Source: Candidatus Lloydbacteria bacterium RIFCSPHIGHO2_02_FULL_50_18 (GTDB lineage Bacteria; Patescibacteriota; Minisyncoccia; Phycocordibacterales; UBA6899). Taken from it: a stretch of 64,000 nt of DNA. Both the position numbers and the translations under genes were made by a program. The stretch lies in the NCBI GenBank assembly GCA_001821395.1, contig MHLM01000012.1, positions 84,107 through 148,106 of the forward strand, given 5' to 3'. The notes beneath the pieces were generated by a model that made no database searches, was not told where the DNA came from, and worked only from the letters and a program-made list of their open reading frames with translations. The stretch's first letter is position 1; every line of letters begins with the position of its first letter. Below, piece by piece: positions 3,117 to 55,381 of the stretch.

Positions 3117-3274
3117 AAATTTTGTAATTCTGGCGCCCTTCGCGCTTGACTTTGAACGCGAGTCCGACGAACGTACTATGAGGAGTACGTCCGCACGGAC
3201 ATCGCATTCTTGCCGCGCGCGAATTGCATCCAGAATAACAAAATTTTTCGTATCGGCTGCAAAATGCAGCAAAT

Positions 3275-7088: not shown

Positions 7089-7640
7089 ATGTACGATGAT
7101 GAAGATGATGACGACGAAGACGAGGGTGAAATAGGGCTTGATGCAGAAACAGTGCGACGCGAAGAGGCCGAGGTCGTGCAGGGGAAAGCATCCCGTGCTT
7201 TTTATGATGACCTCGCAAAAAAAGAAGATGATCGTCACAATGCGATGCGTCTTGACATGCAACAGCGCGCACTTGCCGCGGGTGAACTCCGTCAAAAATT
7301 ACGCAATAAAGAAACCGAGCTGCACGCGCTCCAACTCAAGATCACTATTGAGGAAGACCGTATCGATTATGAAAAAAAGAAAGCGTACCGTCTTGGAGGA
7401 GGTGAATCTATCGCTACGGGAGATGGAGCAACACGATCTGTCCCGATCCCCATACTCTCAAAAGATGTTGACGCTAAGGATGCTGATCAAGAATTTTCGG
7501 TAGAACACGCTGAAATACACATCAAGCAATTGCAGAGTGAAAAATTGGAGCTTGAAAAGGTGTTGAGCGGAATGAAGGAGCATTTGAATGAAGAAGAGCG
7601 TGCGTTGTCACAACTTCAGCATCAACTCGTTCGCATGTAA
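7089..7640 (+). CDS. hypothetical acidic coiled-coil protein
   Basis: N-terminal poly-D/E tract (DDEDDDDEDEGE) followed by heptad-like E/K/L-rich sequence. Confidence 0.5.
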   Translation: MYDDEDDDDEDEGEIGLDAETVRREEAEVVQGKASRAFYDDLAKKEDDRHNAMRLDMQQRALAAGELRQKLRNKETELHALQLKITIEEDRIDYEKKKAYRLGGGESIATGDGATRSVPIPILSKDVDAKDADQEFSVEHAEIHIKQLQSEKLELEKVLSGMKEHLNEEERALSQLQHQLVRM

Positions 7641-12569: not shown

Positions 12570-12829
12570 GCAGTGAATAAGGCGGATCGCTAAGAGAGAT
12601 TGACTCTCAGCCCACATCTGGTATCCTGTGCAGACGTTGCTTCATGTGAGTTTTTAGGTTTGAGCCATTCAGTCGAAAGTATGGCTTAAAACAAGGAGGA
12701 AAACGAGCAGTGCACGTGGAATAAAGTTATACGACCATCTCGTATAACCTCTTGTTTTTACAGTATTGGTCATTTCGGTATTATCCGATGTTTCCAACGC
12801 TGAATTATTTAACTAATCAAAAAAGCTTT

Positions 12830-14020
12830 ATGGCAGATTTTGATCGTTCGAAACCGCATGTGAACGTCGGTACCATTGGTCACGTTGACCACGGAAAAAC
12901 CACACTCACCGCTGCGATATTACACGTGCTGCACATGGGTGGATTCGAAGTGAAGATGAAGGGAGTCAACGAGATCGACTCTGCTCCTGAGGAGCGCGAG
13001 CGCGGTATCACCATCGCCCTTTCGCACAATGAGTACTCGACTGCAACTCGCCACTACGCACATATCGATGCGCCGGGCCATGCAGACTATATTAAGAACA
13101 TGATCACCGGTGCCGCTCAGATGGACGGTGCGATCATCGTGGTTGCGGCAACCGACGGCGTTATGCCTCAGACCCGCGAGCATGTCCTTCTTGCAAAGCA
13201 GGTTGGTGTGCCAAAGATCATCGTCTTCTTGAATAAAGTAGACATGGTTGATGACCAGGACTTGGTTGAGCTCGTTGAGGAAGAGGTTCGTGAATTGCTC
13301 ACCAAGCAGGGATTTGACGGTGCAAACTGCCCCGTTATCCGTGGTTCAGCATTGAAGGCTCTTGAGTCAAAGACCATTGATGATCCTTGGGCTGTGAAGA
13401 TCCTTGATCTTGCAAAGGCACTCGATGAGTACATCCCGGTTCCCGTTCGTGAACTCGACAAGCCATTCCTTATGCCCGTTGAAGACGTCTTTTCTATCGA
13501 AGGACGTGGCACGGTCGTTACCGGCCGTATCGAGCGCGGTGTTTGTAAGGTTGGGCAGGAGGTCGAGATCGTTGGTCTCGCAAAGACCGCAAAGTCGACC
13601 ATCACCGGTATCGAAATGTTCAACAAGTCCCTCTCAGAAGGACAGGCTGGAGACAACGCCGGCATCCTTATTCGCGGCATCAAGAAAGAAGATGTTACCC
13701 GCGGACAGGTTTTGGCCGCAACCGGTACTGTTACCCCACACACTGACTTTGAGTCAGAAGTCTATATCCTTTCCAAGGAGGAGGGTGGACGACACACACC
13801 GTTCTTCTCAGGCTATAAGCCACAATTCTATATCCGTACTACTGACGTGACCGGAGAGGTGACGCTCGCAGAGGGTGTCGAAATGGTCATGCCGGGAGAC
13901 ACGGTGACCTTCAAGGTGAAGCTCATCGCGCCTGTCGCGCTTGAGGCACAAATGCACTTTGCTATCCGCGAGGGTGGCAGGACCGTCGGTGCTGGTGTTA
14001 TTACCAAGATCGTTGCATAA
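12830..14020 (+). CDS. tuf: elongation factor Tu
   Basis: [38 protein letters not shown] and NKVDMVDD motifs. Confidence 0.95.
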
Positions 14021-17492: not shown

Positions 17493-17567
17493 TACAAGCA
17501 CTTATGTGTCAAAAGTTTTTATACATAAGAAAATTGACATTCTTATGTATGAGGATATAATACTTCA

Positions 17568-18654
17568 ATGAGTAAAAAACCAGCTATTGTCGAACCCCTC
17601 AAATTAGATGGCTTAGGGCTAGACTACAACAGGTTTGCAGAAGAACTTTCAACCGCCGAATATGCGCTCGGGTTAATTGAGGGTATGCAAAAAAACTACT
17701 AAACCCAAATCTTTTGATTAGTCCCCTAACCGCCAAGGAAGCAGCTGCGAGTTCTAAGATAGAAGGAACACAAAGTGATGTGTCCGATGTATTTATGTTT
17801 GAGGCGGGTGGGGAAACTAAACATGCAGATACACGTGAGGTTGTGAATTACCGTCGAGCAATGCGTTTGGCCATGACGGAGATTAAAAAAGGAAGAGAGG
17901 TAAGCAGTCATCTGGTAGAGACCCTTCACGGAGTATTATTGAAAGATGTCCGTCATATTGGCAATCTTGGAAAATATAGAGAAGGACAAGTTTGGATTGC
18001 CGAACGATCTGGTGATCCAATTGAGAAAGCGATATACGTCCCACCCGAGGCAATACACGTGCGCGGGTTGGCTCAGAATTTGATTGAATACATAAACGTG
18101 GGGAAGGAGAATGCATTGATTAAGGCAGGCGTTGCACACTATCAGTTTGAGGCAACTCATCCATTTGATGATGGGAATGGGAGAATTGGGAGACTCCTTA
18201 TTCCAATTGTGTTACACAGACATCAGAGATTGTCATCACCAATTCTTTATCTTAGCGGCTACTTTGATGATCATCGAGATGAATATATCGCGAGGCTCCA
18301 TGCATTGGATGATGGTGCTGATATGGAAGATTGGTTAAAATTTTTTTACATTCGGTTAGCCAGCAGCTCGGTCAAACACAAAAAATAATTGAAGGAATTT
18401 ATGAACTCTATGACCAGCTTAGACTTGAAAATAGGGGGATAAAATCACCATTCGTTATTCCCCTCATTGATATGATGTTTGAGATGCCAATTTTTACGTT
18501 GGCCATGGTGCAAGAATCAACTAAATGCTCGAGCTATATAACTGCATCGACACTAATTAAGAGAATGATTGATGCGGGTCATGTTGAAAATGTAGGAAAG
18601 GTTGGAAGGGAAAAGCTTTATGAATTCCGCTCGCTTGTAAAAGTATTAAAATAA
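17568..18654 (+). pseudogene. Fic/Doc-family protein interrupted by two -1 frameshifts at homopolymers
   Basis: HPFDDGNGRIGRLL is the Fic motif. The N-terminus (frame of 17568) stops at 17700. The middle is ORF 17714..18388 and the C-terminus is ORF 18331..18654. Frame switches occur at A7 (17689-17695) and T7 (18341-18347). Confidence 0.7.
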
Positions 18655-32368: not shown

Positions 32369-35113
32369 ATGTCCTCAACAAAAAGGTTTTTTTCACTGTG
32401 CATGTTTGGCATATTCCTCCTTCCCTCACTCGCCGCTGCTGACACCACCATCTCCTCCAACATCACCACGAATCAAACCTGGACCACGGCAAGCAGTACA
32501 TACATCGTCACCACCGGTATTGCGATCAACGCAGGTGTCACCCTCACCATCAACCCCGGAGTGATCGTGAAGTTCAGCGGGATCATGTCCGGCATCACCG
32601 TGAATGGGACGTTAAACGCCCAAGGAACCGCACTTGCACCGATATACTTCACCTCATACAAAGATGACACCGTGAATGGTGATACGAATGGCGATGCGAC
32701 CTCAACAACCCCAGCCGGGGGCGACTGGTTTTGGTTCTCCATTCCCGCGGGCGGAGCAGCAACGATCGACAACGCGATCATCCGCTATGGCGGCAGTTTC
32801 AATACTGCGCTGTTCTATAATAACGGAGGTAACCTCACCCTTGCGAACTCCGAAGTCGCATCCAGTTCCAAGTATGGCATCTGGACATATTCCGGCATAT
32901 CAACTATCGCTTCTTCCACCATCGATCACAACGCGAGCTACGGTATCTATCATACGGGAGGCACCACTACCGTTGCCACGAGTACGATCCGCGATCACAG
33001 CACCTATGGCTTCTCCACCCAGAGCGGAACTGGAAATCTCATCCTCACCAACAATATCTTTTCCGGTAATCTTCAAGGTGGAGGACTGGTGAACTTGGCC
33101 GACAGTGCAAACGTGACCCATACGAACAACAGTGCAACGGGGCAAGGAAAGGGTGGCATGGTCATCTATGGTTCTCCCAATAAGGCACAGACATGGGGAG
33201 CAGACCCGCTCTTCCCGTATATTATCTCAACGACAACAGGGTCGGTCACCGTGAGTACGTATGCCATCACCCTCAATCCCGGTGCGATCATCAAATTTGA
33301 AGGAACAACCGCAGGGTTTGCGGGCAATTCAGGCACCTTCACTGCCGCGGGAACTACACAATCTCCCGTATATTTCACCTCCATCAAGGACGACACCGTG
33401 GGTGGCGACACCAATGGGAATGGCACGGGTACCACTCCATCTGCGGGGGATTGGGATGGTCTCATGTCCCAGAACTATAGCAATCTCACGTTGAACAATA
33501 CCGTGATCCGCTACGGTGGCTCAAAGATGCTCTATGCCAACGGTGTGAACAGCGTCATCAACCTATTCAACTCAGAAGTTGCCAGCAGTTCAAGTGCGGG
33601 AATCTATAGTGATGCAGGAACAGTGAATGCCACCGGTACGAGCATTCACGACAATCGCTACGGCTATTATCACGGCAATGTCCAAGGCAATAGCATTGCC
33701 CACATTGCCAATGCCGGCAACACCATCTATCGCAATAGCACCTATGGTATTTATAACAATGGAACCGCCCTCGTGAATGCCGAGCAGGTATACTGGCCGG
33801 CGACAACAACGGGAGCGACGATGAATGGGCCGTATAGTACAAGCACCAACCCAGGGGGGCATGGAGATGCTGTGCTCCCCACATACATCGACTTTGATCC
33901 TTGGCTCTCTACCGTGTCAGGAAATATCGCAACGAATACCACGTGGACTGCTTCGAGTACATATGTCATTGATGGAACGCTCACGGTGAATGCGGGGACG
34001 ACACTCACGATTCCTGCAGCTACGGTGGTGAAGTTTGCCAATGCAACCTCAAAGATCAGCGTCTCGGGGAGCTTGGTTGCAGATTCTGCAGCGTCTTCCT
34101 CACGAATATATTTCACGTCAATCAAGGATGATGCGGTGGGAGGGGATACCAATGGAGATGGGGGTGCGACTTCACCTGCTGCGGGAGATTGGGATGGGAT
34201 CAAAGTGAATGCGGGAGGCGTTGCAACACTGAACTTCATTTCTGCTCGCTATGGAGGAAGTGGTGGGCCCATGCTTTGGAACTATGCAGGAACGTTGGAT
34301 CTTAATAATTCAGAAATTGCGAGCAGTAGTAATACGGGAATCTTCCATTCCTCGGGTGCCACGCAATTAATAGTTCGAGCTTGTGATATTCACAACAATA
34401 ATTATGGCATATTTGTTGACGACAGCTCGCTTGTGACAATCGGCAGCAACAATATTCATGGCAATGTTGTGGGAGTAAATGATAATACTTTTTTTGGGAT
34501 TGATATTAGATATAACTATTGGGGTGATGCAAGTGGCCCATATAATTCTGTCTATCACCCGACTGGGACCGGTGATACCATCGTTGAGAATGCGTTTACG
34601 CTTGTTTCTCCATGGTTAGACAGGGTACATTATTTGTATTTCTTAAACCACAATTTGGTTACTTCGATTACCAGTGGAGTATTGGATTGGAATTGGTTCA
34701 ACGGCACATCTACTTATGCGACGGCTTGGTATGCAGGAGTTAACACATGGAACACATATGGAAATTCGGTTGGAGGAGTTACTTTTGCAACAAGTACCAC
34801 GGCAACATCCTCAGCTGATTTACTCGTTTTGGACATGGCTAGCTCATCTAGTGATTTATTCTATGCCATCTACGACCCCTTTGTTACTCCTACGGAAATT
34901 AAATTTAACCCTTATTATATGAACACTGCAACTGCTAATATAAGGCAAATGACCACAACTCATGAACTTGGTCATGCCCTAGGGCTTTGGCACAGTTATA
35001 TAAACAACATCATGATTGCATCCCCAGCTTCAACTACTGGTCAGGTTTCACTGGGCACTCAAGATATGTTGGATTACGATTATTGTTGGGTGAGTCATAA
35101 TTGTGGGATATAA
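32369..35113 (+). CDS. secreted beta-helix repeat protein with C-terminal metzincin-type zinc protease motif (914 aa)
   Basis: Signal peptide MSSTKRFFSLCMFGIFLLPSLAAA. Three modules of about 250 aa each end in (I/A)RYGGS and carry repeated NSEVASSS, IYFTS(I/Y)KDD, GDTNG and GDWDG motifs. C-terminal THELGHALGLWHS matches HExxHxxGxxH. Confidence 0.6.
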   Translation: MSSTKRFFSLCMFGIFLLPSLAAADTTISSNITTNQTWTTASSTYIVTTGIAINAGVTLTINPGVIVKFSGIMSGITVNGTLNAQGTALAPIYFTSYKDDTVNGDTNGDATSTTPAGGDWFWFSIPAGGAATIDNAIIRYGGSFNTALFYNNGGNLTLANSEVASSSKYGIWTYSGISTIASSTIDHNASYGIYHTGGTTTVATSTIRDHSTYGFSTQSGTGNLILTNNIFSGNLQGGGLVNLADSANVTHTNNSATGQGKGGMVIYGSPNKAQTWGADPLFPYIISTTTGSVTVSTYAITLNPGAIIKFEGTTAGFAGNSGTFTAAGTTQSPVYFTSIKDDTVGGDTNGNGTGTTPSAGDWDGLMSQNYSNLTLNNTVIRYGGSKMLYANGVNSVINLFNSEVASSSSAGIYSDAGTVNATGTSIHDNRYGYYHGNVQGNSIAHIANAGNTIYRNSTYGIYNNGTALVNAEQVYWPATTTGATMNGPYSTSTNPGGHGDAVLPTYIDFDPWLSTVSGNIATNTTWTASSTYVIDGTLTVNAGTTLTIPAATVVKFANATSKISVSGSLVADSAASSSRIYFTSIKDDAVGGDTNGDGGATSPAAGDWDGIKVNAGGVATLNFISARYGGSGGPMLWNYAGTLDLNNSEIASSSNTGIFHSSGATQLIVRACDIHNNNYGIFVDDSSLVTIGSNNIHGNVVGVNDNTFFGIDIRYNYWGDASGPYNSVYHPTGTGDTIVENAFTLVSPWLDRVHYLYFLNHNLVTSITSGVLDWNWFNGTSTYATAWYAGVNTWNTYGNSVGGVTFATSTTATSSADLLVLDMASSSSDLFYAIYDPFVTPTEIKFNPYYMNTATANIRQMTTTHELGHALGLWHSYINNIMIASPASTTGQVSLGTQDMLDYDYCWVSHNCGI

Positions 35114-35124
35114 CATTGAAAACC

Positions 35125-35853
35125 ATGAACAAAGATATAAAAGATATAATAATCCTTCTTACTGCACTCCTGCTCTCTGCCATCGTCATTGCTGGAATAT
35201 ATTACAGAGCAAAAAGAATACCCGAAGAAACTCCAGGAACCTTGAAAAGATATCAGCTCCAAGGAACACCTGATCATCCGGCGATGTTTTATCCTACCGA
35301 TCTGACTAAAGATATAAACCTATTGGGCTCATCTCATGATGTTTTCATAGGAAAAGTCATTTCTCAAACTGGTGACAAAGAAACTCAGATTGGACCACGC
35401 ACACAATATTCGGTGGAAGTTATTGATAATATTAAGGGTAAGTTAAAAGATATTGTAACCATTGACATGCTGGGTGGTTATGACAAAGATGGCAAGTTGG
35501 TAGTAATCGAAGAAAATGATTCAACTGATTTTCTCCTTAAACCAGGCTCAACTTACCTCTTTGCTACCCGTTATAACGAAGAAGAGGATTGGTATACTCT
35601 AATTTCTCACCCGAATGCTCGAAAAATTATAAGTACAGATAACACAAAAAATGAAGCCGCTCTCATGGCTCTCATCGACCAAGACGAAAAGGTAAAATCC
35701 TTTGAATCCGCATACGCCCATGAAGTTCTCCTCGACGCCGACATCGCCCACGGAAATACTCGTAACTCCTTCCAGTCTCTCGCACCAGCGGAAAAAGCCG
35801 CCGCCCAATCCCGCGCTGATGCGGCAAGAGCCTTGCTTGAGGCAATGCAGTAA
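35125..35853 (+). CDS. hypothetical N-terminally membrane-anchored protein
   Basis: MNKDIKDIIILLTALLLSAIVIAGIYY TM anchor. Its 5' region is duplicated at 36093-36276. Confidence 0.45.
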   Translation: MNKDIKDIIILLTALLLSAIVIAGIYYRAKRIPEETPGTLKRYQLQGTPDHPAMFYPTDLTKDINLLGSSHDVFIGKVISQTGDKETQIGPRTQYSVEVIDNIKGKLKDIVTIDMLGGYDKDGKLVVIEENDSTDFLLKPGSTYLFATRYNEEEDWYTLISHPNARKIISTDNTKNEAALMALIDQDEKVKSFESAYAHEVLLDADIAHGNTRNSFQSLAPAEKAAAQSRADAARALLEAMQ

Positions 35854-36092
35854 GATGCTTCTGCGGGGGTATACTTATTTGTGAACACAACGGCTCATGA
35901 ACAAAAAAATACTAAAATACACACTTGTCATCTTTGGGATATTCCTGCTCGGAGGCGTCGCGTTGTCGATCCATTTGTTCATCCAAAGTAAATTTGGTGT
36001 TTACGCTCCTCTAGATCGCGGATTTCCGGTAAGGACATTCCATCCAACGGGTATTAGTATTGATCAACCCAGCATTTGAATGGATACCTATC

Positions 36093-36276
36093 ATAATTGT
36101 GGGATATAACATTGAAAACTATGAACAAAGACATAAAAGATATAATGATTCTTCTTATTGCACTTCTACTCTCCATCGTCGTCATTGCTGGAATATATTA
36201 CGGAATAAAAAGTACTCAAGGAACTGTAGTTTCAACATATTCTCATCAGGGAACGCCTGAAAATCCGGCAATGTAG
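36093..36276 (+). pseudogene. truncated duplicate of the 35096-35290 junction (gene fragment encoding MNKDIKDIMILLIALLLSIVVIAGIYY...)
   Basis: About 80% nucleotide identity over about 185 bp. It includes the last 20 nt of the upstream gene (HNCGI stop) and the first 51 codons of the downstream gene, then a stop. Confidence 0.4.
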
Positions 36277-41332: not shown

Positions 41333-41579
41333 AAAACGAGCAATTTGGGCGCACTACAGGTTTGTCATCGGGTATGACCCCACGTCAACGTACGAGAGTA
41401 CGTCTCGTGAGGATCATCCCTCGACGCACCCGTATTGCATCCCAAATTGTTCGTTTTTGTTTTGTCTTAAAATCATGAACATTTGGTTGTCGCGAATATC
41501 GTTGTAGCCGGCAAGTAGATCAAAACACAAAAGACCCGAAAGGGTTTTTTGTTTTATCGTTTTTTGATACACTCTCTTT

Positions 41580-42185
41580 ATGAATAAAGAAACATTTATC
41601 TTCATTGGGGCATCGGGATCAGGAAAAGGAACGCAGGTTGCCTTGCTCAAAGAAGAACTGCTCAAAAAAGATCCGACTACTCCGATCTTCTATCTTCAGA
41701 CCGGACAGTACTTTCGTGAATTCATCAAAGATGATACTCTCGCGTCGCGTATCGCAAAAGATGCGATCAACAATGGCGAGCGTGCACCGGACTTTTTGGC
41801 GATGTATATCTGGTCAAAGGTGTTCGTCGAAAATCTCAAAGGAGAGGAGCATCTCATTATTGATGGTTCCCCGCGGTCGTTGAATGAAGCGCGAAATCTC
41901 GATATCGCGCTCAAGTTCTTTAAACGCGAACATCCCGCCGTCATTTATATCAATGTATCACGGAAGTGGTCGTTCGATCATTTGATGGCACGCGCAACGA
42001 AGGAGGGTCGCATTGACGATAACGCGGAGAGTATCAATAAGCGCATTGCATGGTTCGATGCAGATGTTCTTCCCGCCATCGAAAAATTCCGTCGCGATAG
42101 AGATTATGATTTTGTGGAGGTGAACGGTGAGCAATCGATCGAGGCTGTCCATCGCGACATCATGGCGAATGTGTTTGGGGTGTAA
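41580..42185 (+). CDS. adk: adenylate kinase
   Basis: FIGASGSGKGTQ P-loop and LID region. Confidence 0.93.
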   Translation: MNKETFIFIGASGSGKGTQVALLKEELLKKDPTTPIFYLQTGQYFREFIKDDTLASRIAKDAINNGERAPDFLAMYIWSKVFVENLKGEEHLIIDGSPRSLNEARNLDIALKFFKREHPAVIYINVSRKWSFDHLMARATKEGRIDDNAESINKRIAWFDADVLPAIEKFRRDRDYDFVEVNGEQSIEAVHRDIMANVFGV

Positions 42186-42283
42186 CGTTCACTTTTGAGC
42201 ACAAAATAGTGTTGATCAAACAGACTCGTGCTCACACCCGATCGCCGCTTTTTTATTCCGGAGAACGATGCTAGTATGCCGAT

Positions 42284-43048
42284 ATGGCCAAATTTAAGAC
42301 AAAAGAGGAGATCGTCCTTCTGCGAGAGTCCGGAAAACGCTTGGCGCGGGTACTCCATGCCGTAGCAAAGGAGATCAAGCCGGGGGTGACCACGCAATAT
42401 CTCGATGAAGTCGCCGAGCGGCTCATTCGTGAAACGGGCGATACTCCGCCATTTTTGAACTACACTCCGGTCGGTGCACGAAGACCGTACCCCGCGGCGC
42501 TTTGTGTGTCGGTGAATGACGAGATCGTGCACGGCATCCCGAGTGATCGCGTACTGAAGGAGGGCGATATCGTCTCTATCGATCTTGGACTCACACACAA
42601 AGGAATGATCACTGATGCGGCGCTTACTGTCCCGGTGGGCAAGGTCTCAAATAAGATATTGGAATTGATCTCAGAAACAGAACGCTCACTCAAGGAGGGC
42701 ATTCGCGCTATGCATCCCGGAGGACACATCGGGGATATCGGTGCAGCCGTTGAGCGTGTTGCGCATCAGCATGGGTACGGTATCGTGCGTGAGCTTGGCG
42801 GTCATGGGGTAGGGCATGCGGTGCACGAAGACCCCTATGTTCCCAATTACGGAAAAAAACATTCCGGTCCGATACTCAAGCCCGGTATGGTCTTGGCGCT
42901 TGAGCCGATGTTCATGTTGGGAAGTGAAGATATTCGGCTTATGCCGGACGGGTATACGATCATTACGGAAGACGGCTCTCTCTCTGCGCACTTTGAACAT
43001 ACGGTTGTCGTCACTGAAACAGGAGTAGAGATACTGACGAAGGAATAG
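42284..43048 (+). CDS. map: methionine aminopeptidase type I
   Basis: Pita-bread fold motifs (VCVSVNDEIVHGIP, DIVSIDLG, HGVGHAVHEDP, LEPMF). Confidence 0.93.
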   Translation: MAKFKTKEEIVLLRESGKRLARVLHAVAKEIKPGVTTQYLDEVAERLIRETGDTPPFLNYTPVGARRPYPAALCVSVNDEIVHGIPSDRVLKEGDIVSIDLGLTHKGMITDAALTVPVGKVSNKILELISETERSLKEGIRAMHPGGHIGDIGAAVERVAHQHGYGIVRELGGHGVGHAVHEDPYVPNYGKKHSGPILKPGMVLALEPMFMLGSEDIRLMPDGYTIITEDGSLSAHFEHTVVVTETGVEILTKE

Positions 43049-46048: not shown

Positions 46049-46079
46049 CTTACTCACGTGACAGAATGTGTTATATAAT
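46049..46079 (+). promoter_or_regulatory. sigma70-type promoter (TTACTC ... tgtTATATAAT) for the ATPase gene, near-leaderless
   Basis: TATAAT at 46074-46079 lies 9 nt upstream of the ATG at 46089. Confidence 0.4.
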
Positions 46080-49000: not shown

Positions 49001-49265
49001 CACAGTTCCGGTAAGTGTCCCTCCAGCAACGGCAGTCGTTCCGTTTCCAGCAGTCCCGTTGCCGTCCAGTCCCGTATCTCCTCTCAATACTGCGCCACAA
49101 GCCACAACGCAGTTTGCGCAAGCATTCGTGCGTGCGGATCAAGTGGCACCCTCGAACGTTTCACTCTCTCTACCCGAGATGCCCGCATTCAAGATGGCTG
49201 AGGAGCCGGACAACAAGGTCCCCCCAGTCCCTGGAGCTTTTGGCAGTGTATTTTCCCAAAAATAG
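46089..49265 (+). CDS. HerA/FtsK/TraD-VirD4-superfamily P-loop ATPase with large N-terminal domain and Pro/Val-rich C-terminal tail (1059 aa)
   Basis: Walker A IGQTGTGKS and Walker B LYVDEFQNI precede the LNLAHQ sensor. About 470 aa of unassigned N-terminal sequence. The ORF track began at a GTG at 46068. Confidence 0.65.
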   Translation: MEHHEGQFESPKFSSPEEELKYLRERVAQKEQQLWQEQEPVQKESVISGQVLEYAESSPAARLEEHMIIENPQFETVVEHLSSLPHREKVRELYRILAEKGVLNAINVARAQNNPHIEEDFHRVLVEYVKTGVLVPGLDKERELAKELRMTVFEVTLPYAGAQEGVTLASFHDVVTAMERFYIGMIPPPGSSAAPYGPIALELVLSNFSSDIVFFITVEEHMKDLFVKQILGSFPTAKIEECPGDFNIFNEFGISVASYAEPLGNFIYPIQLMEEAEKDPLTTILNSFTKIERNGEGAAIQIILYPDTGNIDGKIKYGIHQLGQHVPASRATNIPLSTGGVITKSLTEFFHTQLKTEKKDEATQAKEAETNAKAKELMEEKIKAPLIRANIRIVASSTTRERAEMIRMSIEAAFSQFNRPQAGGVKFTKTVNKKLEELLHHFTYREVNDSEALIFNSRELAYLYHLPLTVSQKDAPQLKTVQASSAPAPADLPHEGTLIGVNKYRGESREIRLTKADRLRHLYTIGQTGTGKSVFLKNLAVQDILAGNGVCFIDPHGSDVQDVLAAIPKERIDDVIYFDPSYTKRPFALNMLEYDVDHPEQKIFVVNEMLAIFKKLYSSSPESMGPAFEQYFRNATMLVMEDPESGNTLLEIPRVLADPAFRNLKLSRCKNPIVVQFWRDIATKTSGESGLQNMIPYITNKFDVFISNDVMRPIIAQEKSSFNFRDIMDNKKILLVNLAKGSLGEMNANLLGLIIIGKFLMAAMSRVDSFGKSLPDFYLYVDEFQNIATPSISAILSEARKYGLSLNLAHQFIGQLPEDIKAAVFGNVGNMVVFRVGTEDAQFLESQFAPIFKASDIMKIENRNAYAKILINGKPVSPFNVEMLPPPEGHPEVVEQLKNLSYLKYGRDRKIVDDAILKRYMSAQQNPQPAGVAAVRSVTPIASVPVQSGAVAPVQSQILRPVVMSAPLSVPTVPVSVPPATAVVPFPAVPLPSSPVSPLNTAPQATTQFAQAFVRADQVAPSNVSLSLPEMPAFKMAEEPDNKVPPVPGAFGSVFSQK

Positions 49266-49354
49266 TCTTTAAGTGTCGAAGAATTTCGCTGAAACGTACT
49301 GTTTTTTCGGCATCTTTGCTACAATAAGTTGGCTAACGGGCGCGGAAAATATCT

Positions 49355-49384
49355 TTTGACAAAGTACAAAATTATTGATATAAT
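49355..49384 (+). promoter_or_regulatory. perfect consensus sigma70 promoter TTGACA-N18-TGaTATAAT driving a leaderless mRNA of the giant gene
   Basis: TTGACA at 49355-49360, TG at 49376-49377, TATAAT at 49379-49384. The ATG at 49391 is 6 nt after the -10 hexamer. Confidence 0.6.
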
Positions 49385-49390
49385 GATAAT

Positions 49391-52300
49391 ATGAACGAAT
49401 TTCCTGAAGACATTAAGGTGCAAGGGGAGACGGTTGAAGCGCGCGGTCTGCGCTGGAAAACGGAAGAAGACGATCTGCAGCGCTTGCTTCTGGAAAATAA
49501 TGTTTCGACTGAGGCGTCGGATATGTTGATTGACCAGCTTGCCCGGAAACATCGGACGGAGGAAGAGAACAACGACGTCTTTCCGACCATGGATGATTTC
49601 GACCGCTATGAAAGGGCGATGTCTTTTGGCACATCTGAACGGGGAGAGGATGTATCACCCGCACAAAATGAACCACCTGCCGCGATCGAAGCCGTTGCGA
49701 CGATCGTTGAACGTGAAGAAGAGGATAAGCCCGGGCAACTGTCACAAGAGATGAAGGAGGCGCTCGTGAGAGAATTGAATACGACCAAAGACGAGATCGA
49801 TCAGGCGTGGAGTGTCATTCGCGTCTATGGCGGTGAGAAAAAGGACGGCATCATTCCCGAAAAAAGAACGTACACTGAAGAAGAATTCTTGAATGCAAGG
49901 AGAACATACGATCAATTGCGTACGAAGGCGAAAGAGTTGGCGCTTGAAGTAGCCGGAGGAGAGCAGCTCTTTGGTGCGGTCAAGATTCCCGATCTTGTGG
50001 TGATGGATAGTTATAACGAGAAGGTTTCAGCGAGGACGAGGGATGAGCGTAAAGTAAGGGAGCGTGCACTCCCAAAAGAGGAACGAGATGCATATTACGA
50101 TGCGCTTGCTCGTAAGCGAGCGTTTGTGCAGGCGCTTACCGATAACGGCGTGCGAAAGGATATGGCACTTGGTCTCTATGGCGAGTTCGCCGACAAAGCG
50201 ATCGCTCTTGATAAGTTTTCGCAAGTGCTTGAACATGAATTGAAAGAGGGAGATGCGCCGAAGCTCTCGGGGGGACGAGAATACCATCTGCTGAAGTGGC
50301 ATGGCATCAAAGAAGGTTCGTCGTGGGATGAGATCGCGGCACAGGTCCATGCGCTGCTTGATGCATATCATACCGTTCCTCCTCATGTGGAACGCGTGCG
50401 CGAAGAAGTGCCATCATTAGTACCTCTTATGGATGCAAAGGAGGCAGGGGTCGTTCCCACTACTCAGTCACATGCCGATACTGCAGGAATACCGAGCGCA
50501 CCTTTTTCCGAAATGGATGAGCAGTTTCCGTCCGATGCCGGTGCGGTGGACGAGGCCGTTCCACAGGAGGTGATCGATGGGTGGAAAGAACAGGGCATCA
50601 TGATCAAGCCGGGCACGACGGGAGCGGAGTTAGGAACGATATTGCGAAATGTTGGTGGCGCACGCGGGATGGAATCGATTGCAGCGACCCAAGCGCAGGT
50701 TGAGCTTACGGAGATTGCTCCGGTGGAAGAGACCGACTCGGTCGTACTAGCTCCATTGGTGACTACCGATACAGAGACACCGGCAGAAACACCTATTGAA
50801 GAGGAGGCATTACCTCCCCCGATCGAGGCTGTCGTGTCGGCTCCTTCAGGTGTGGAGGATGTTTTGCCACAAGTGGAGATAAGTCCCGAGCAGCAATCAC
50901 TCACACCGCTATCGTGGGAAGAGGTTGATGCGCAGATGGCAGGTTCTGATCTTGAAGTAGTACAACATGCACGAGCTGAATGGGAGCGGCGGACAAATGC
51001 GGCATTAGCATACAGTAAAGAAAAAGGCACGTTTGGTGCTCTGCGGGAAACTCTGCGTACGATCAGGGATGGTTTTGGTAATACGATCCCCGAAAAATGG
51101 TTGAAAGAATTTCATGAAGTCCCCGATGTGGCACGATATTTGCGCGAACATCCGATTGCCGAGGGAGTCAGTGCCGCGCCGGAAGTTGTTACGACGGTAT
51201 TGTCGAATAAGCAGCTCGAGGATATGGCTGAGGCCGGTCAGTGGGATAACAAAAAAGATACGACTGCAGAGACGGAGTTTGAGATGCGTGAAGGCGGGAA
51301 GAAGAATAAAGAGAATATCTTTCTTGAGAAAGCGATCAGTGCGTTCCGTGCTACCCCGAGTATGGATTTTGCGATGGTCAAGGCCGCGATCGATGCCGGC
51401 AATAAGCCGACAAGTGAAGTGATCGGGGATCTTCTTGCGCGAGGACTCGTCACGCTGACTCCCCCGGGGACATATACATGGGTTGAGACTGCCGATGCGC
51501 CTGAAATTTCCGTCATTCCTGAAACGGAAGCTCTGGATATTCCTTTCATTCCAACTATTCCTACGATCCCGCAGCCGGTGGTTCCTGCCGCATCGCTACC
51601 TGTTGTACCAGAATCTATTCCTCAACTGACACCGCTCCATGAAGCTCCCGCTACGCTCTCTTCCTACGATGCAGCTCTTGAAGAGCAGTGGAACGCACGG
51701 GATAAAAAATTTCAAGCGCCTGACTGGGAGCTTGTTCCGATGGAAAAAGCGGAGTCTGAAGCATCTCCTCAATTAACCGCGGAAGAAGAAAAAGAACTGA
51801 ATGAGGTTGGTACATTATGGGCTTCATTTCTTGATCGTGAATACGGGCTTGATATCGAGGGAAAAGAAATTGCGCCGATTACCGAGGAGGCGGTCATTGC
51901 AAACGGGGAAGCGTTGGAGACACTTGCACTTACTTCAGGTTTACCGGAAGAGGCACTTGGACGTGTCCAAGCCGCGGAAGCGGTCGGCGACACCGTTCCC
52001 GGCGATGTCACATATCAGTTCGAAAGAAAATTCGGAGTGAGCGGAGCAATGCTCGAAAGGATAGCGTCATTCAGCGGCCTCTCGGCCGGGCAGCAATTAC
52101 TTGTCCTCAAAAATCTCGAGCAGCTTACACTTACTGATATCACCAAAGAGGCAAAAGCAAAACAGCAGGCGGAATGGGGAAATACGAAGTGGTGGAAAAG
52201 AGGACTGCAGATGATCGCATCTCTCGGCATGAAGCCGGAGTATCGCACCGCAGAGCTCGAAAAAGAACTGCTCGCAAAAACACAAGAGTCAAAAGCACAG

Positions 52301-54622
52301 CCCGAAACCCCTGAAGCGGTCCACCGAAAGGCGAAGACGCTTTCATACATTGAATCGCTCGCGAAGGTCGCACAAGAAGGACCGGAAGTGATCGTCGAGA
52401 ATGGGGAGCCCCGTACCAATTATCTTTCTTCTAAGGACCTCATTCCACAGAAGGAGGGGGGTACAGTGAGCGAAGAACAGAAAATTACGATCGAGAATTT
52501 CAATCGTTCTGCCAGCGCTTATGCAACAATCCCACATGGATGGACATACGGAACGACCGAACTTTCGAAGGAAGATCGTGCGCAATTTGAGCAAACCAAA
52601 CTTGCTTATGATGTTGCACGTGCGTCCCTGCTTTATTCGTACAAAGACCGCTTCAAAGAAGAGGGAGAAGCTCCCGCTCGTGCGGAGATGCATGCGCTTC
52701 GCGAGATGAACAAGCTTGATGAGCGGGTCACGCTCGATCAGTTGTTCAATAGTAATCCTGATGCTGAAGCGGCTTTGCAGAATATTGCGGACACCTCCGC
52801 GATGACCCGTGCGGCGAAAGAGTTCTGGAAATCGAAGGGCATGTTCATTCTCTATGGTGGTCTTACGCGTGCGGCAGCGGTCTCCGCAGCGGGAGTACTT
52901 GCGGTGCCGACCATGGGCGCATCGATCTATGCCGCTCTCGCCGTGGGCGGGGTGGGCTACGGGGCAGCACTCGGAGCGGGCTATGGCGTAGGACACGGCA
53001 TCGGTCAAAAAGAGGGAAAGAAACTGATGAAAGAAAAGCGTGAAGACGGACGCATGGGTGAGGACGATAAACGAGAGGAGTTTGAATACTCGAGCCCTAT
53101 GCATGATGAAAAGGGGGCGGTCGTGAAGGATCAATTTGGTGAAGCGGTGGTGGAAACAAAGAAGCGCAAGATCAAAGCATTCACCGATGCGACCTTTTTC
53201 ACTGACCGTATCGATACGCTTACCGCAAAGCTTGAGCAATCCCCGACGCCTGAATCTCGCATGTTGATCGAAAAAAAGATCGCGGAGACGGTCGCGCTCA
53301 TGTCTGCAAAACTTTCACGTGGCATGATCAACTTTGCCGGATCCTCGCTTCCCGGAAATGACGTGCGTAAGGGGGAGACGATAGGGAATCGATTGTCATT
53401 TATGCAAGCCATGACGAAGGGTGCGATCGAGACGAGTGTTGATGGTGCAAAACTGGAACAAGAGGCGGAGCGACTGGTCGGTCTTCGCGAGGCTATCATC
53501 ACGGAGGCACAGAAGAATGAGATCAAGCATATCGCCGCAAAAGCAGCAAAAACACGAGCTGCGTTTGCTCTTGCCGGTGCGGGGCTGTCACGTGTTATGA
53601 GTTTTGGTGTTGGGGTCTACCGAGACGGAATGCCAGATATTGCAAAGAATATCGCACGACTTGATCATACTATTGCACAACGTATCTCAAGTGGAGCACC
53701 GGAAAGCATCGAGGAGATCACCGAGATTCCTGCGCCGGAGGAAATAGCTTCAGTACCCAAGTTGGAAATGAGCGCTCATGGCGCGCCGGAACTTGATTTT
53801 CGTGATCCGGCAAGCTACGCCGTTTATATGAAAGAAATGAACAGCGTTTTCGAGCGACAGGTCTCAGCATCTGAGGTGCGGGCATTATGGCAAACAGACG
53901 TACCATCTTCCTCTATGTCGTCTGAATACTATGAGAGTATCCAAGGGAAGACACACAACGCCATTGTCGGGGCAATGTTGGACAAAAATACTCCGCTCAC
54001 CGAGGAAGAGCTCGCTGATATTTATCGGCATTTCGGATACAACGAAACAATGGGGAGACAATTTCCGAATGAAATGGGGCTGGACAAGAATGAAACGATC
54101 ATTGGAGCAGTGAAGCCGTCGCTTCCACTACCGCCACTCCCGTCGGAAATGCCACCGTCACTTCCTCTTCCACCAAATACCTCAACACCCGGAACCGAAA
54201 CATGGGCGAAATTACGGAGGCCGATGCCGGAGGATGCCGTGCTTTCGGACCAGCGAACATTCGGCAGTCAGCCGGAGAATATCTCTCCGCGCATGCCCTT
54301 GAATGAAGTGGCACCACACGTTCCGACCGATGCAGAGATGGCGCTGTCAGTTGCACGAATTGAGACAAGCATTCACCGTTACCTTACGAGTAACGAGGTT
54401 GTTACTTTTAAAAGTCTGAAAACGCTCGAGTTGAGCACGTCAGACCACGAGACGCGCGATATGGTGATCGATGCAGAAAACTTTCTCGTTGAAGAGATGA
54501 CAAAAGGGCCGCTTTCACCTTCGCAAATGTATCATCTCCTCGAACAATATTCGCTCCAAGAAACGATAACCGTCGTTCGGGATGCGGACCTTGAACGAGA
54601 GTTGTTCCAACGAAGACCATAG
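49391..54622 (+). CDS. giant hypothetical protein (1743 aa) with Pro-rich linkers and Gly-zipper TM segments
   Basis: Single uninterrupted ORF. Predicted TM or amphipathic segments lie near residues 1150-1200 (AAVSAAGVLAVPTMGASIYAALAVGGVGYGAALGAGYGVG) and near 1390. All internal opposite-strand ORFs are shadows. Confidence 0.6.
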   Translation: MNEFPEDIKVQGETVEARGLRWKTEEDDLQRLLLENNVSTEASDMLIDQLARKHRTEEENNDVFPTMDDFDRYERAMSFGTSERGEDVSPAQNEPPAAIEAVATIVEREEEDKPGQLSQEMKEALVRELNTTKDEIDQAWSVIRVYGGEKKDGIIPEKRTYTEEEFLNARRTYDQLRTKAKELALEVAGGEQLFGAVKIPDLVVMDSYNEKVSARTRDERKVRERALPKEERDAYYDALARKRAFVQALTDNGVRKDMALGLYGEFADKAIALDKFSQVLEHELKEGDAPKLSGGREYHLLKWHGIKEGSSWDEIAAQVHALLDAYHTVPPHVERVREEVPSLVPLMDAKEAGVVPTTQSHADTAGIPSAPFSEMDEQFPSDAGAVDEAVPQEVIDGWKEQGIMIKPGTTGAELGTILRNVGGARGMESIAATQAQVELTEIAPVEETDSVVLAPLVTTDTETPAETPIEEEALPPPIEAVVSAPSGVEDVLPQVEISPEQQSLTPLSWEEVDAQMAGSDLEVVQHARAEWERRTNAALAYSKEKGTFGALRETLRTIRDGFGNTIPEKWLKEFHEVPDVARYLREHPIAEGVSAAPEVVTTVLSNKQLEDMAEAGQWDNKKDTTAETEFEMREGGKKNKENIFLEKAISAFRATPSMDFAMVKAAIDAGNKPTSEVIGDLLARGLVTLTPPGTYTWVETADAPEISVIPETEALDIPFIPTIPTIPQPVVPAASLPVVPESIPQLTPLHEAPATLSSYDAALEEQWNARDKKFQAPDWELVPMEKAESEASPQLTAEEEKELNEVGTLWASFLDREYGLDIEGKEIAPITEEAVIANGEALETLALTSGLPEEALGRVQAAEAVGDTVPGDVTYQFERKFGVSGAMLERIASFSGLSAGQQLLVLKNLEQLTLTDITKEAKAKQQAEWGNTKWWKRGLQMIASLGMKPEYRTAELEKELLAKTQESKAQPETPEAVHRKAKTLSYIESLAKVAQEGPEVIVENGEPRTNYLSSKDLIPQKEGGTVSEEQKITIENFNRSASAYATIPHGWTYGTTELSKEDRAQFEQTKLAYDVARASLLYSYKDRFKEEGEAPARAEMHALREMNKLDERVTLDQLFNSNPDAEAALQNIADTSAMTRAAKEFWKSKGMFILYGGLTRAAAVSAAGVLAVPTMGASIYAALAVGGVGYGAALGAGYGVGHGIGQKEGKKLMKEKREDGRMGEDDKREEFEYSSPMHDEKGAVVKDQFGEAVVETKKRKIKAFTDATFFTDRIDTLTAKLEQSPTPESRMLIEKKIAETVALMSAKLSRGMINFAGSSLPGNDVRKGETIGNRLSFMQAMTKGAIETSVDGAKLEQEAERLVGLREAIITEAQKNEIKHIAAKAAKTRAAFALAGAGLSRVMSFGVGVYRDGMPDIAKNIARLDHTIAQRISSGAPESIEEITEIPAPEEIASVPKLEMSAHGAPELDFRDPASYAVYMKEMNSVFERQVSASEVRALWQTDVPSSSMSSEYYESIQGKTHNAIVGAMLDKNTPLTEEELADIYRHFGYNETMGRQFPNEMGLDKNETIIGAVKPSLPLPPLPSEMPPSLPLPPNTSTPGTETWAKLRRPMPEDAVLSDQRTFGSQPENISPRMPLNEVAPHVPTDAEMALSVARIETSIHRYLTSNEVVTFKSLKTLELSTSDHETRDMVIDAENFLVEEMTKGPLSPSQMYHLLEQYSLQETITVVRDADLERELFQRRP

Positions 54623-54772
54623 GAACAGAGCGTGAGACTGATTCCTCCGCGCTTTTACAAGACCAACACCCCCCCCCTAATGTGTGGGGGTGTTGTGCTA
54701 TTCATCCATGAAGTTGCGTGCTTTCTCGTATCTGCTACGATGGAGCACAATTAGGAATAATCTAAACTTCGT

Positions 54773-55381
54773 ATGGAGAAAAAGCATCCCAAATTCGAGC
54801 GCACATTCGTCATCCTTAAGCCGGATGCAATACAGCGCACGCTTATCGGAGAAGTCATTAAGCGTTTTGAGCGTACGGGGTTGAAGACGGTCGGTATGAA
54901 AATGATCGTCGCAACACGTGAACAGACCGCAGCGCATTATGGAAAGGATGATGCGTGGTGCGAAAAAGTAGGTGGACGCATCATCGGGGATATAGAGCGA
55001 GAGGGAGGTAAGGCTGAGAAGTCGGCTTTGGAGTATGGCCGTGACATATTGAACGGTCTGTTGGATTTCCTGACTTCTTCACCGATCGTGATCATGGCTC
55101 TTGAAGGCAATCAGGCGGTCGGCGTCGTCAAAAAGATCGTTGGTGGGACGGAACCCCTTTCCTCGGATGTCGGTACTATCCGCGGTGATTTCACGAGTGA
55201 TTCATACGAGATCGCTGGTGTGGACGGACGAGCGGTGCGAAACATCGTGCATTGTTCCGATCAGGTGTCCGAAGCGGAACGTGAGCTCAAGGTCTGGTTC
55301 AAAGAAGGCGAATTGATCAAGTACACACATGTCGGGGAGCGAATGCTGTACGATGTGAACATGGACGGCATCCTCGAGTAA
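54773..55381 (+). CDS. ndk: nucleoside diphosphate kinase (with internal insertion)
   Basis: FVILKPDAIQRTLIGEVIKRFERTGLK and the active-site NIVHCSD (NxxHxSD). Confidence 0.9.
   Translation: MEKKHPKFERTFVILKPDAIQRTLIGEVIKRFERTGLKTVGMKMIVATREQTAAHYGKDDAWCEKVGGRIIGDIEREGGKAEKSALEYGRDILNGLLDFLTSSPIVIMALEGNQAVGVVKKIVGGTEPLSSDVGTIRGDFTSDSYEIAGVDGRAVRNIVHCSDQVSEAERELKVWFKEGELIKYTHVGERMLYDVNMDGILE

Follow-up and report, generated by a model that had tools for sequence, protein, structure and literature searches.

A conserved, leaderless-type consensus promoter precedes a giant gene in a Paceibacteria bacterium

In a 64,000-nucleotide (nt) stretch of 'Candidatus Lloydbacteria' DNA (contig MHLM01000012.1, positions 84,107 to 148,106; hereafter the window), a giant gene encoding 1743 amino acids (aa) lies downstream of a gene for a VirD4-like ATPase and is preceded by a consensus promoter, P1, whose −10 hexamer ends 6 nt before the ATG. 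We consider it likely that a leaderless transcript from P1 is the main product of the giant gene. In the mechanism proposed, P1 (49356-49384) would be a functional housekeeping-sigma promoter of a bacterium of the class Paceibacteria within the candidate phyla radiation (CPR). RNA polymerase would start at A49391 or within about a base of it, leaving at most one or two extra bases before the AUG, and would produce a monocistronic messenger RNA (mRNA) of ~5.3 kb with AUG as its first three bases. Translation would be initiated by direct binding of the ribosome and initiator tRNA to the 5′-terminal AUG, with neither a leader nor a Shine-Dalgarno (SD) sequence. Direct binding of a 5′-terminal AUG by these components is the established leaderless pathway. 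The leaderless layout is the normal mode of expression for many genes of the lineage, and about a third of unit-leading genes share its geometry. The giant gene is unusual in joining a full −35 hexamer and a 17-nt spacer to an extended −10, whereas most promoters of the lineage consist only of TnTGnTATAAT.

The elements of P1 are listed in Table 1, and the stretch from P1 to the ATG reads ...tatcttTTGACAaagtacaaaattatTGaTATAATgataatATGaac... The original prediction, made from the letters alone, had placed the −35 hexamer at 49355-60 with an 18-nt spacer. TTGACA is actually found 1 nt further on, at 49356-61, and the spacer is 17 nt, the optimum, which brings P1 even nearer to consensus. The predicted TG and the TATAAT at 49379-84, with the ATG 6 nt on, were confirmed by reading of the sequence and by the promoter scan. 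The intervening 6 nt are GATAAT, and A49391 is the seventh base past the hexamer. Since the usual span of a −10 hexamer is −12 to −7, +1 falls on the A of the ATG when the gap is 6 nt. This ATG is also the 5′-most possible start of the open reading frame (ORF), because an in-frame TGA at 49376-78, composed of the TG of the extended −10 and A49378, closes the frame upstream. P1 shows the features that define sigma-70 extended −10 promoters, namely a −35 near TTGACA, a spacer of 17 ± 1 nt and TGn followed by a −10 near TATAAT.

No GGAG, GAGG or AGGA occurs in the 45 nt 5′ of the giant-gene ATG, and Rfam searches returned no known leader or riboswitch (whole window at gathering thresholds; 49150-49650 at E<=1). 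The predicted 5′ end of the P1 mRNA is unpaired, with, if anything, less structure in its first 60 nt than in shuffles (z +0.95), which is weakly consistent with a leaderless start. Initiation at ATG 49523, which has GAGG 8 nt upstream, was considered and rejected, as protein conservation extends upstream of this next in-frame ATG (codon 45). Residues ~24-58 of the giant protein align with the proteins of loci L011, L007 and L006 (...KHxxExEN... motif), and because they are conserved as protein, the region 5′ of codon 45 must be translated.

P1 is conserved in ten distinct orthologous loci (the window, L001, L003, L004, L006, L007 at 11995, L010, L011, L012 and L013). The −35 hexamer is TTGACA in six of these and TTGACT in four; the spacer is 17 nt in seven, 16 nt in two and 18 nt in one; the TG extension is present in 10/10; the −10 hexamer is TATAAT in seven, TACAAT in two and TATAGT in one; and the distance from the −10 to the ATG is 6 nt in eight, 8 nt in one and 9 nt in one. 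This layout has been kept although the giant proteins share only 11-36% identity over their first 150 residues, and, unlike the promoter layout, the remainder of the intergenic spacer has diverged between the orthologues. A weaker variant, TTGACT-16-CAAAAT-6-ATG, is found in L008. Locus L007, where a TATAAT stands 32 nt before the first ATG past the ATPase gene, was rejected as an exception: that ORF is a different, inserted gene, and the true orthologue begins at L007:11995 with TTGACA-17-TGgTATAGT-6-ATG. Such comparative evidence supports the claim of a near-ideal extended −10 sigma70 promoter that would give a leaderless, SD-less mRNA, with the transcription start site (TSS) predicted at the start codon.

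The same evidence bears on whether P1 could be a functionless chance match in an AT-rich intergenic spacer. Promoter-like sites overall are about as frequent as in shuffles (14 found against 14.2 expected in 42-58 kb), which would fit a chance origin. However, P1 is the sole 12/12 match with TG among these 14 sites, and for the full pattern TTGACA-N14-TGnTATAAT with at most one mismatch, dinucleotide shuffles give an expectation of 0.03 per window; it was found twice, the exact copy being P1. In addition, TATAAT shows a strand bias of 17:4 that matches gene orientation. Chance is excluded because the layout, with the same spacing, is conserved among the ten orthologous loci, and we assign it a negligible probability.

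The original prediction had called for a survey of TATAAT motifs close to start codons. Such a survey was run over ~1 Mb of related DNA in all. Both strands of the window, of close loci and of 72 more distant Paceibacteria loci (738 ORFs) were examined at each ORF of >=120 aa, upstream of its first ATG. Hexamers matching TATAAT at >=5/6 positions, with A2 and T6 required, were counted at each upstream distance. The 72 distant loci gave 77, 40, 50 and 26 such hexamers at gaps of 6, 7, 8 and 9 nt, over a flat background of ~9.6 per position (gaps 12-44). The corresponding counts in the close loci were 10, 4, 7 and 7, and the window itself contributed four at gap 6 and three at gap 9. The modal gap in the lineage is 6 nt, with a sharp peak. 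SD tetramers occur before 4-8% of genes; they show no positional peak among the relatives, and in the window the peak is only slight. Further, the −10 motif precedes 41% of genes whose upstream neighbour is divergent, and 31-40% of genes after a gap of >25 nt compared with 20% of genes <=25 nt from the preceding ORF.

A logo of 225 leaderless-type sites from this survey gave TnTGnTATAAT, with TG at −15/−14 (G 0.56), T at −17 and a weak TT at the −35 position. By their form, these features are those of RNA polymerase recognition, not of ribosome binding. The alternative would be that the TATAAT-like motif is an AT-rich, non-SD translation signal carried on leadered mRNAs, like that of the Bacteroidetes in GeneMarkS-2 group B. 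Such a signal would fit the lack of SD enrichment in the lineage and the presence of the motif before a fifth of the genes that closely follow another ORF, but it does not account for the hallmarks of polymerase recognition, which comprise the invariant-type A2 and T6, the TG one base upstream, the T at −17 and a −35-like TT(G) 17 nt away. Nor would a ribosome signal need a −35, whereas the giant gene has a perfect TTGACA at exactly 17 nt, and the motif is about twofold enriched before unit-leading genes. We therefore find a translation signal improbable and prefer to read the motif as a promoter element.

Within this background, the giant-gene promoter stands out for its match to consensus. 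Only 9/225 of the surveyed leaderless-type promoters have a −35 matching at >=5/6 positions. A wider list, which covered ORFs of >=60 aa, included run-off ORFs and allowed gaps of 5-10 nt, contained 22 promoters with a −35 reaching 5/6; ten of these belong to giant-gene orthologues, as do all of the 22 that also carry the TG extension. The giant-gene promoter is the most consensus-like in the ~1 Mb of related DNA. Because the giant gene alone keeps a full −35 together with an extended −10 across its orthologues, strong expression is predicted: the pattern suggests that a very high affinity for polymerase has been selected, and expression is therefore probably abundant.

Several observations weigh against this reading or limit it. 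The TSS of the giant gene is placed by the usual distance from −10 to +1, and the survey is built on first-ATG ORF heuristics, not on curated gene calls. High output need not follow from a perfect consensus promoter, as promoter escape can be limiting. The window also contains SD-led starts at 182 (GGAGG), 10851, 11549, 18783 and 62570, so the organism is not purely leaderless, and these good SD sites indicate that it probably retains the anti-SD. On the minus strand, a near-consensus extended −10 promoter (61239-61211, TTGACA-17-TGcTACAAT) lies past a clean terminator hairpin; it drives a leadered ORF of ~63 aa (~61166 to ~60975, minus) with the SD AGGAG, 7 nt and GTG. Finally, a conserved element upstream of P1 and a weak terminator behind the ATPase gene mean that leadered transcripts of the giant gene may coexist with the leaderless one.

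The spacer between the ATPase stop codon and the giant-gene ATG is 125 nt long and holds the terminator-like hairpin. The fold of this hairpin is not significant (z −0.6) and it is absent from the terminator-scan list; L001 and L003 carry a clearer hairpin, GCCGAA...TTCGGC-TTTTTT, at the equivalent position. Directly past the T run after the ATPase gene follows the conserved element, P2, an invariant T-TTTG-TACAAT island within the otherwise diverged spacer. L006 has P2 29 nt 5′ of the P1 −35; in the window, L001 and L003 this distance is 30 nt. Comparable hexamers are found 23-39 nt 5′ of the −35 in L006 and L010-L013, and in L004 P2 is ~165 nt from P1 and adjoins the ATPase terminator. P2 may be a second, weaker promoter giving an unstructured, SD-less leader of ~59 nt, or a terminator-linked element. 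An upstream ORF starting from P2 (TTG 49329, with an ATGA overlap with the start codon) was rejected, as it has no ATG and its TTG is only 3 nt from the hexamer.

On these grounds the main mRNA could be leadered, starting at P2 (TSS near 49332) or by read-through from the ATPase gene, with P1 in a secondary or regulatory role. In that case the AUG would have to be located on a leader that is AU-rich, unstructured and SD-less, as in other SD-less genes such as that of EF-Tu. The invariance of P2 in the alignment, the −10-like hexamer upstream of the −35 in most orthologues and the weak hairpin past the ATPase gene all agree with this possibility. So do the lack of structure in a P2-derived leader (centroid −2.2 kcal/mol, z +1.0) and the existence in the window of an SD-less leadered gene, that of EF-Tu at 12830, following 'aaaaagcttt'. 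However, P1 (12/12 with TG) is a far better promoter than P2, which has an extended −10 and no −35, and the exact 6-nt gap is kept in 8/10 orthologues and is the mode of the lineage, a distance that a secondary promoter would have no reason to keep. The ~165 nt between the two elements in L004 further imply that P2 tracks the terminator rather than P1. We regard a mainly leadered mRNA as unlikely, and the leaderless transcript from P1 is preferred.

The arrangement at the upstream ATPase gene offers a second case. It had been claimed that this gene has the same arrangement as the giant gene (TATAAT 46074-79, ATG 46089), and this holds, with a gap of 9 nt; the ATPase promoter has neither TG nor a good −35. 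The conserved N-terminus of the ATPase (ME..KFSSPEEE) was located by tblastn in 78 loci, and a −10-like hexamer, mostly a perfect TATAAT, was found 6, 7, 8 or 9 nt before the ATG in 19, 18, 10 and 13 of them (60/78). The window's exact TATAAT, 9 nt and ATG recur in L004, L006, L007, L012, L013 and L019. The 9-nt gap predicts a leader of 0-3 nt, which is inside the distribution across the class.

The 1058-aa product of this gene is a predicted type IV coupling-protein-like ATPase, and its NCBIfam TraD/VirD4-type matches are partial and under the curated cut-offs. VirD4-like coupling proteins are reported to be very common in Patescibacteria and to be usually encoded distant from virB4 (PMC12102498). 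The ATPase has 496 relatives in a scan limited to one genome per species. Among the best 80 of the 496, the named lineages are all Patescibacteria/CPR (Paceibacterota, Lloydbacteria, Zambryskibacteria, Nomurabacteria, Kaiserbacteria and others), and the two closest, 78% and 75% identical, are both 'Candidatus Lloydbacteria'. These closest relatives and the conserved synteny fit Patescibacteria (CPR), class Paceibacteria, as the source of the window. A 1028-aa gene of L001 (69-3155) was rejected as an ATPase orthologue and dropped from the ATPase alignment, as its product is only 19% identical to the window ATPase; the true orthologue of that genome (75% identical) is on another contig, L060. 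The adjacency of the ATPase and giant genes is therefore not universal, because L001 carries another gene upstream and its ATPase orthologue elsewhere.

Leaderless genes have been described in bacteria of GeneMarkS-2 group C, including Actinobacteria and Deinococcus-Thermus, in which the Pribnow box and the start are 6-8 nt apart and a leaderless state is predicted for 25-50% of transcripts (PMC6028130). The giant gene fits this group, with a 6-nt Pribnow gap, the 5′-most ATG, no SD, a unit-leading position and a signal that is recurrent in the lineage. As in group C genomes (Mycobacterium, Streptomyces, Corynebacterium, Deinococcus), genes of this type are first in their operon, start with ATG, have no SD and are mixed with leadered genes; the modal gap in the window's lineage is 6 nt, and 31-41% of its unit-leading genes fit the pattern. 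Unlike group C, in which the remaining genes use SD sequences, the window's relatives show no SD enrichment among leadered genes, and they are Patescibacteria/Paceibacteria of moderate to low guanine-plus-cytosine (GC) content. The lineage consensus TGnTATAAT, with a T two bases further upstream, resembles extended −10 promoters of sigma-70/SigA, including the Gram-positive TRTGn '-16 region' promoters. P1 differs from the typical extended −10 promoters of its lineage in adding a perfect −35 at the optimal 17 nt.

In archaeal leaderless genes (group D), a TATA box with a transcription factor B recognition element (BRE) is found ~26 nt upstream (PMC6028130). The giant gene resembles these in its predicted mRNA start at or beside the start codon and in its lack of an SD. 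Unlike them, P1 has bacterial −35 and −10 hexamers, the −10 ending 6 nt before the ATG, no TATA/BRE geometry of ~26 nt is present, and the taxon is bacterial. Leaderless translation had been put forward as an archaeal/CPR-like trait. The CPR part stands as regards the taxon, in view of the ATPase relatives; the specificity of the trait does not, as leaderless expression is the norm in Actinobacteria and Deinococcus-Thermus, and the geometry is bacterial, not archaeal. Judged by its layout, the giant gene is a standard bacterial leaderless gene with an ordinary mechanism. The lineage-level pattern is apparently undescribed: the searchable literature yielded no description of leaderless genes in CPR bacteria, only incidental mentions.

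Of Parcubacteria 16S genes, only 48% were found to carry the CCTCCT anti-SD motif, and no SD helices are inferred in Parcubacteria that lack it (Tsurumaki et al., 2022, PMC9297842). The lack of SD enrichment in the surveyed loci is similar to this report, although that study did not cover mRNA 5′ architecture and several good SD sites are present in the window. Translation in these organisms must rely on leaderless and unstructured-leader initiation if they do not use SD pairing. Extended to the class, the proposal would be that SD initiation is essentially unused in Paceibacteria and about a third of the units are leaderless, that the ATPase layout is kept class-wide, and that the giant protein, with the strongest promoter, is among the most abundant products. 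We lean by a narrow measure towards this wider proposal.

If true, the CPR would join Actinobacteria and Deinococcus-Thermus as a third major group of bacteria in which leaderless expression is pervasive, and the leaderless trait would be linked to the reduced ribosomes and frequent anti-SD loss of the CPR. It would offer a mechanistic counterpart to the anti-SD loss and reduced ribosomes reported for Parcubacteria. Gene callers that rely on SD sequences misplace starts in such genomes, and a −10 box 6-9 nt from the ATG would be a usable CPR start signal. The giant protein has no recognisable domain, and its promoter is conserved while the protein diverges; together with the VirD4-like ATPase, it would deserve early attention in proteomic and localisation work on these uncultivated episymbionts.

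Table 1. Features of the giant-gene region and other leaderless-type starts (positions in the window unless a locus is named; gap, distance from the −10 hexamer to the ATG)
Feature	Position	Strand	Basis or remark
ATPase-gene −10 hexamer TATAAT, 9 nt before ATG 46089	46074..46079	+	sequence read
VirD4/TraG-like coupling-protein-type ATPase, 1058 aa	46089..49265	+	Pfam TraG-D_C; N-terminus MEH..KFSSPEEEL conserved
Weak terminator-like hairpin past ATPase gene (GCUGAAA / UUUCGGC) and short T run	49288..49311	+	sequence read
P2, extended −10-like TGcTACAAT, putative second promoter	49317..49325	+	conserved island in spacer alignment
P2 counterpart	L001 ~3203-3211
P2 counterpart	L003 ~499-507
P2 counterpart	L006 ~7266-7274
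P1 −35 hexamer TTGACA (6/6)	49356..49361	+	sequence read and promoter scan; TTGACA or TTGACT in 10/10 orthologous loci
TG of extended −10 (TGaTATAAT)	49376..49377	+	sequence read and promoter scan; TG in 10/10 orthologues
P1 −10 hexamer TATAAT (6/6), 17 nt past −35	49379..49384	+	orthologues TATAAT, TACAAT or TATAGT
ATG start codon and predicted transcription start	49391..49393	+	position read from sequence; TSS predicted
Giant ORF, 1743 aa	49391..54622	+	ORF list
Two hairpins past giant ORF stop	54629..54695	+	54629-54653 then TTTT; 54664-54695 = CAACACCCCC...GGGGGTGTTG
Leaderless-type start, gap 6	7089		TGcTATACT
Leaderless-type start, gap 6	7678		TGaTATAAT
Leaderless-type start, gap 6	11943		TACAAT
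Leaderless-type start, gap 9	36792		TATAAT
Leaderless-type start, adenylate kinase, gap 6	41580		TGaTACACT
Leaderless-type start, methionine aminopeptidase, gap 6	42284		TGcTAGTAT
Leaderless-type start, DUF2914 protein, gap 6	58524		TGgTATACT

The giant protein is acidic and cysteine-free, without a signal peptide, and has a single hydrophobic stretch near residues 1161-1188. Sequence searches of Pfam, NCBIfam and PDB gave no significant match, and only three homologues were found among 5.8 billion database proteins. The gene order giant gene-NDK-DUF2238-beta-CASP nuclease-UDG is conserved in relatives, with the ATPase gene upstream in L004. The region of the two hairpins past the giant ORF folds strongly (54615-54775, minimum free energy −52.5 kcal/mol, z −3.8); the giant gene is therefore probably monocistronic, and the hairpins likely form the end of its unit. 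No rRNA, tRNA gene or Rfam family was found within the window.

The exact giant gene is also present in runs SRR3989338, SRR3989344 and SRR2090153. Three contigs that carry it (L086, L087 and L088; 7.3-11.7 kb) reach ~975 nt 5′ of the ATG, and because all three extend this far past it, they hold no TSS information. These contigs are independent assemblies from different runs, and all break in the Pro/Val/Ser-rich 3′ part of the ATPase gene, which suggests strain-level variability or an assembly problem at a low-complexity region.

Genes for adenylate kinase and methionine aminopeptidase are usually found at the tail of the ribosomal-protein/secY operon. In the window (41540-41580 and 42245-42284), a T-rich terminator-like stretch precedes each of these two genes separately, and after it comes an extended −10 exactly 6 nt from the ATG; the operon appears to be split into separate leaderless units. 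The EF-Tu-like ORF (within 12752-14020) has a conserved N-terminus that begins at ATG 12830, preceded by 'caaaaaagcttt', with no SD and no adjacent −10. An SD-less leader thus apparently serves the translation of EF-Tu, a highly expressed gene.

There is a second promoter of full consensus and leaderless type at 17534-17702, TTGACA-16-TATAAT-6-ATG (17568). It precedes an ORF of only 44 codons (MSKKPAIVEPLKLDGLGLDYNRFAEELSTAEYALGLIEGMQKNY*), after which comes a 224-codon ORF from TTG 17714. The ORF at 17568 may encode a small protein, or a nonsense or frameshift mutation may have disrupted a gene here. Further, a 122-nt direct repeat (35095-35216 and 36091-36212; 89% identity, 996 nt apart) spans the starts of two adjacent genes in a region with a GC content of 0.43 compared with ~0.49 elsewhere, and these genes look like tandem paralogues with a common N-terminal hydrophobic segment.

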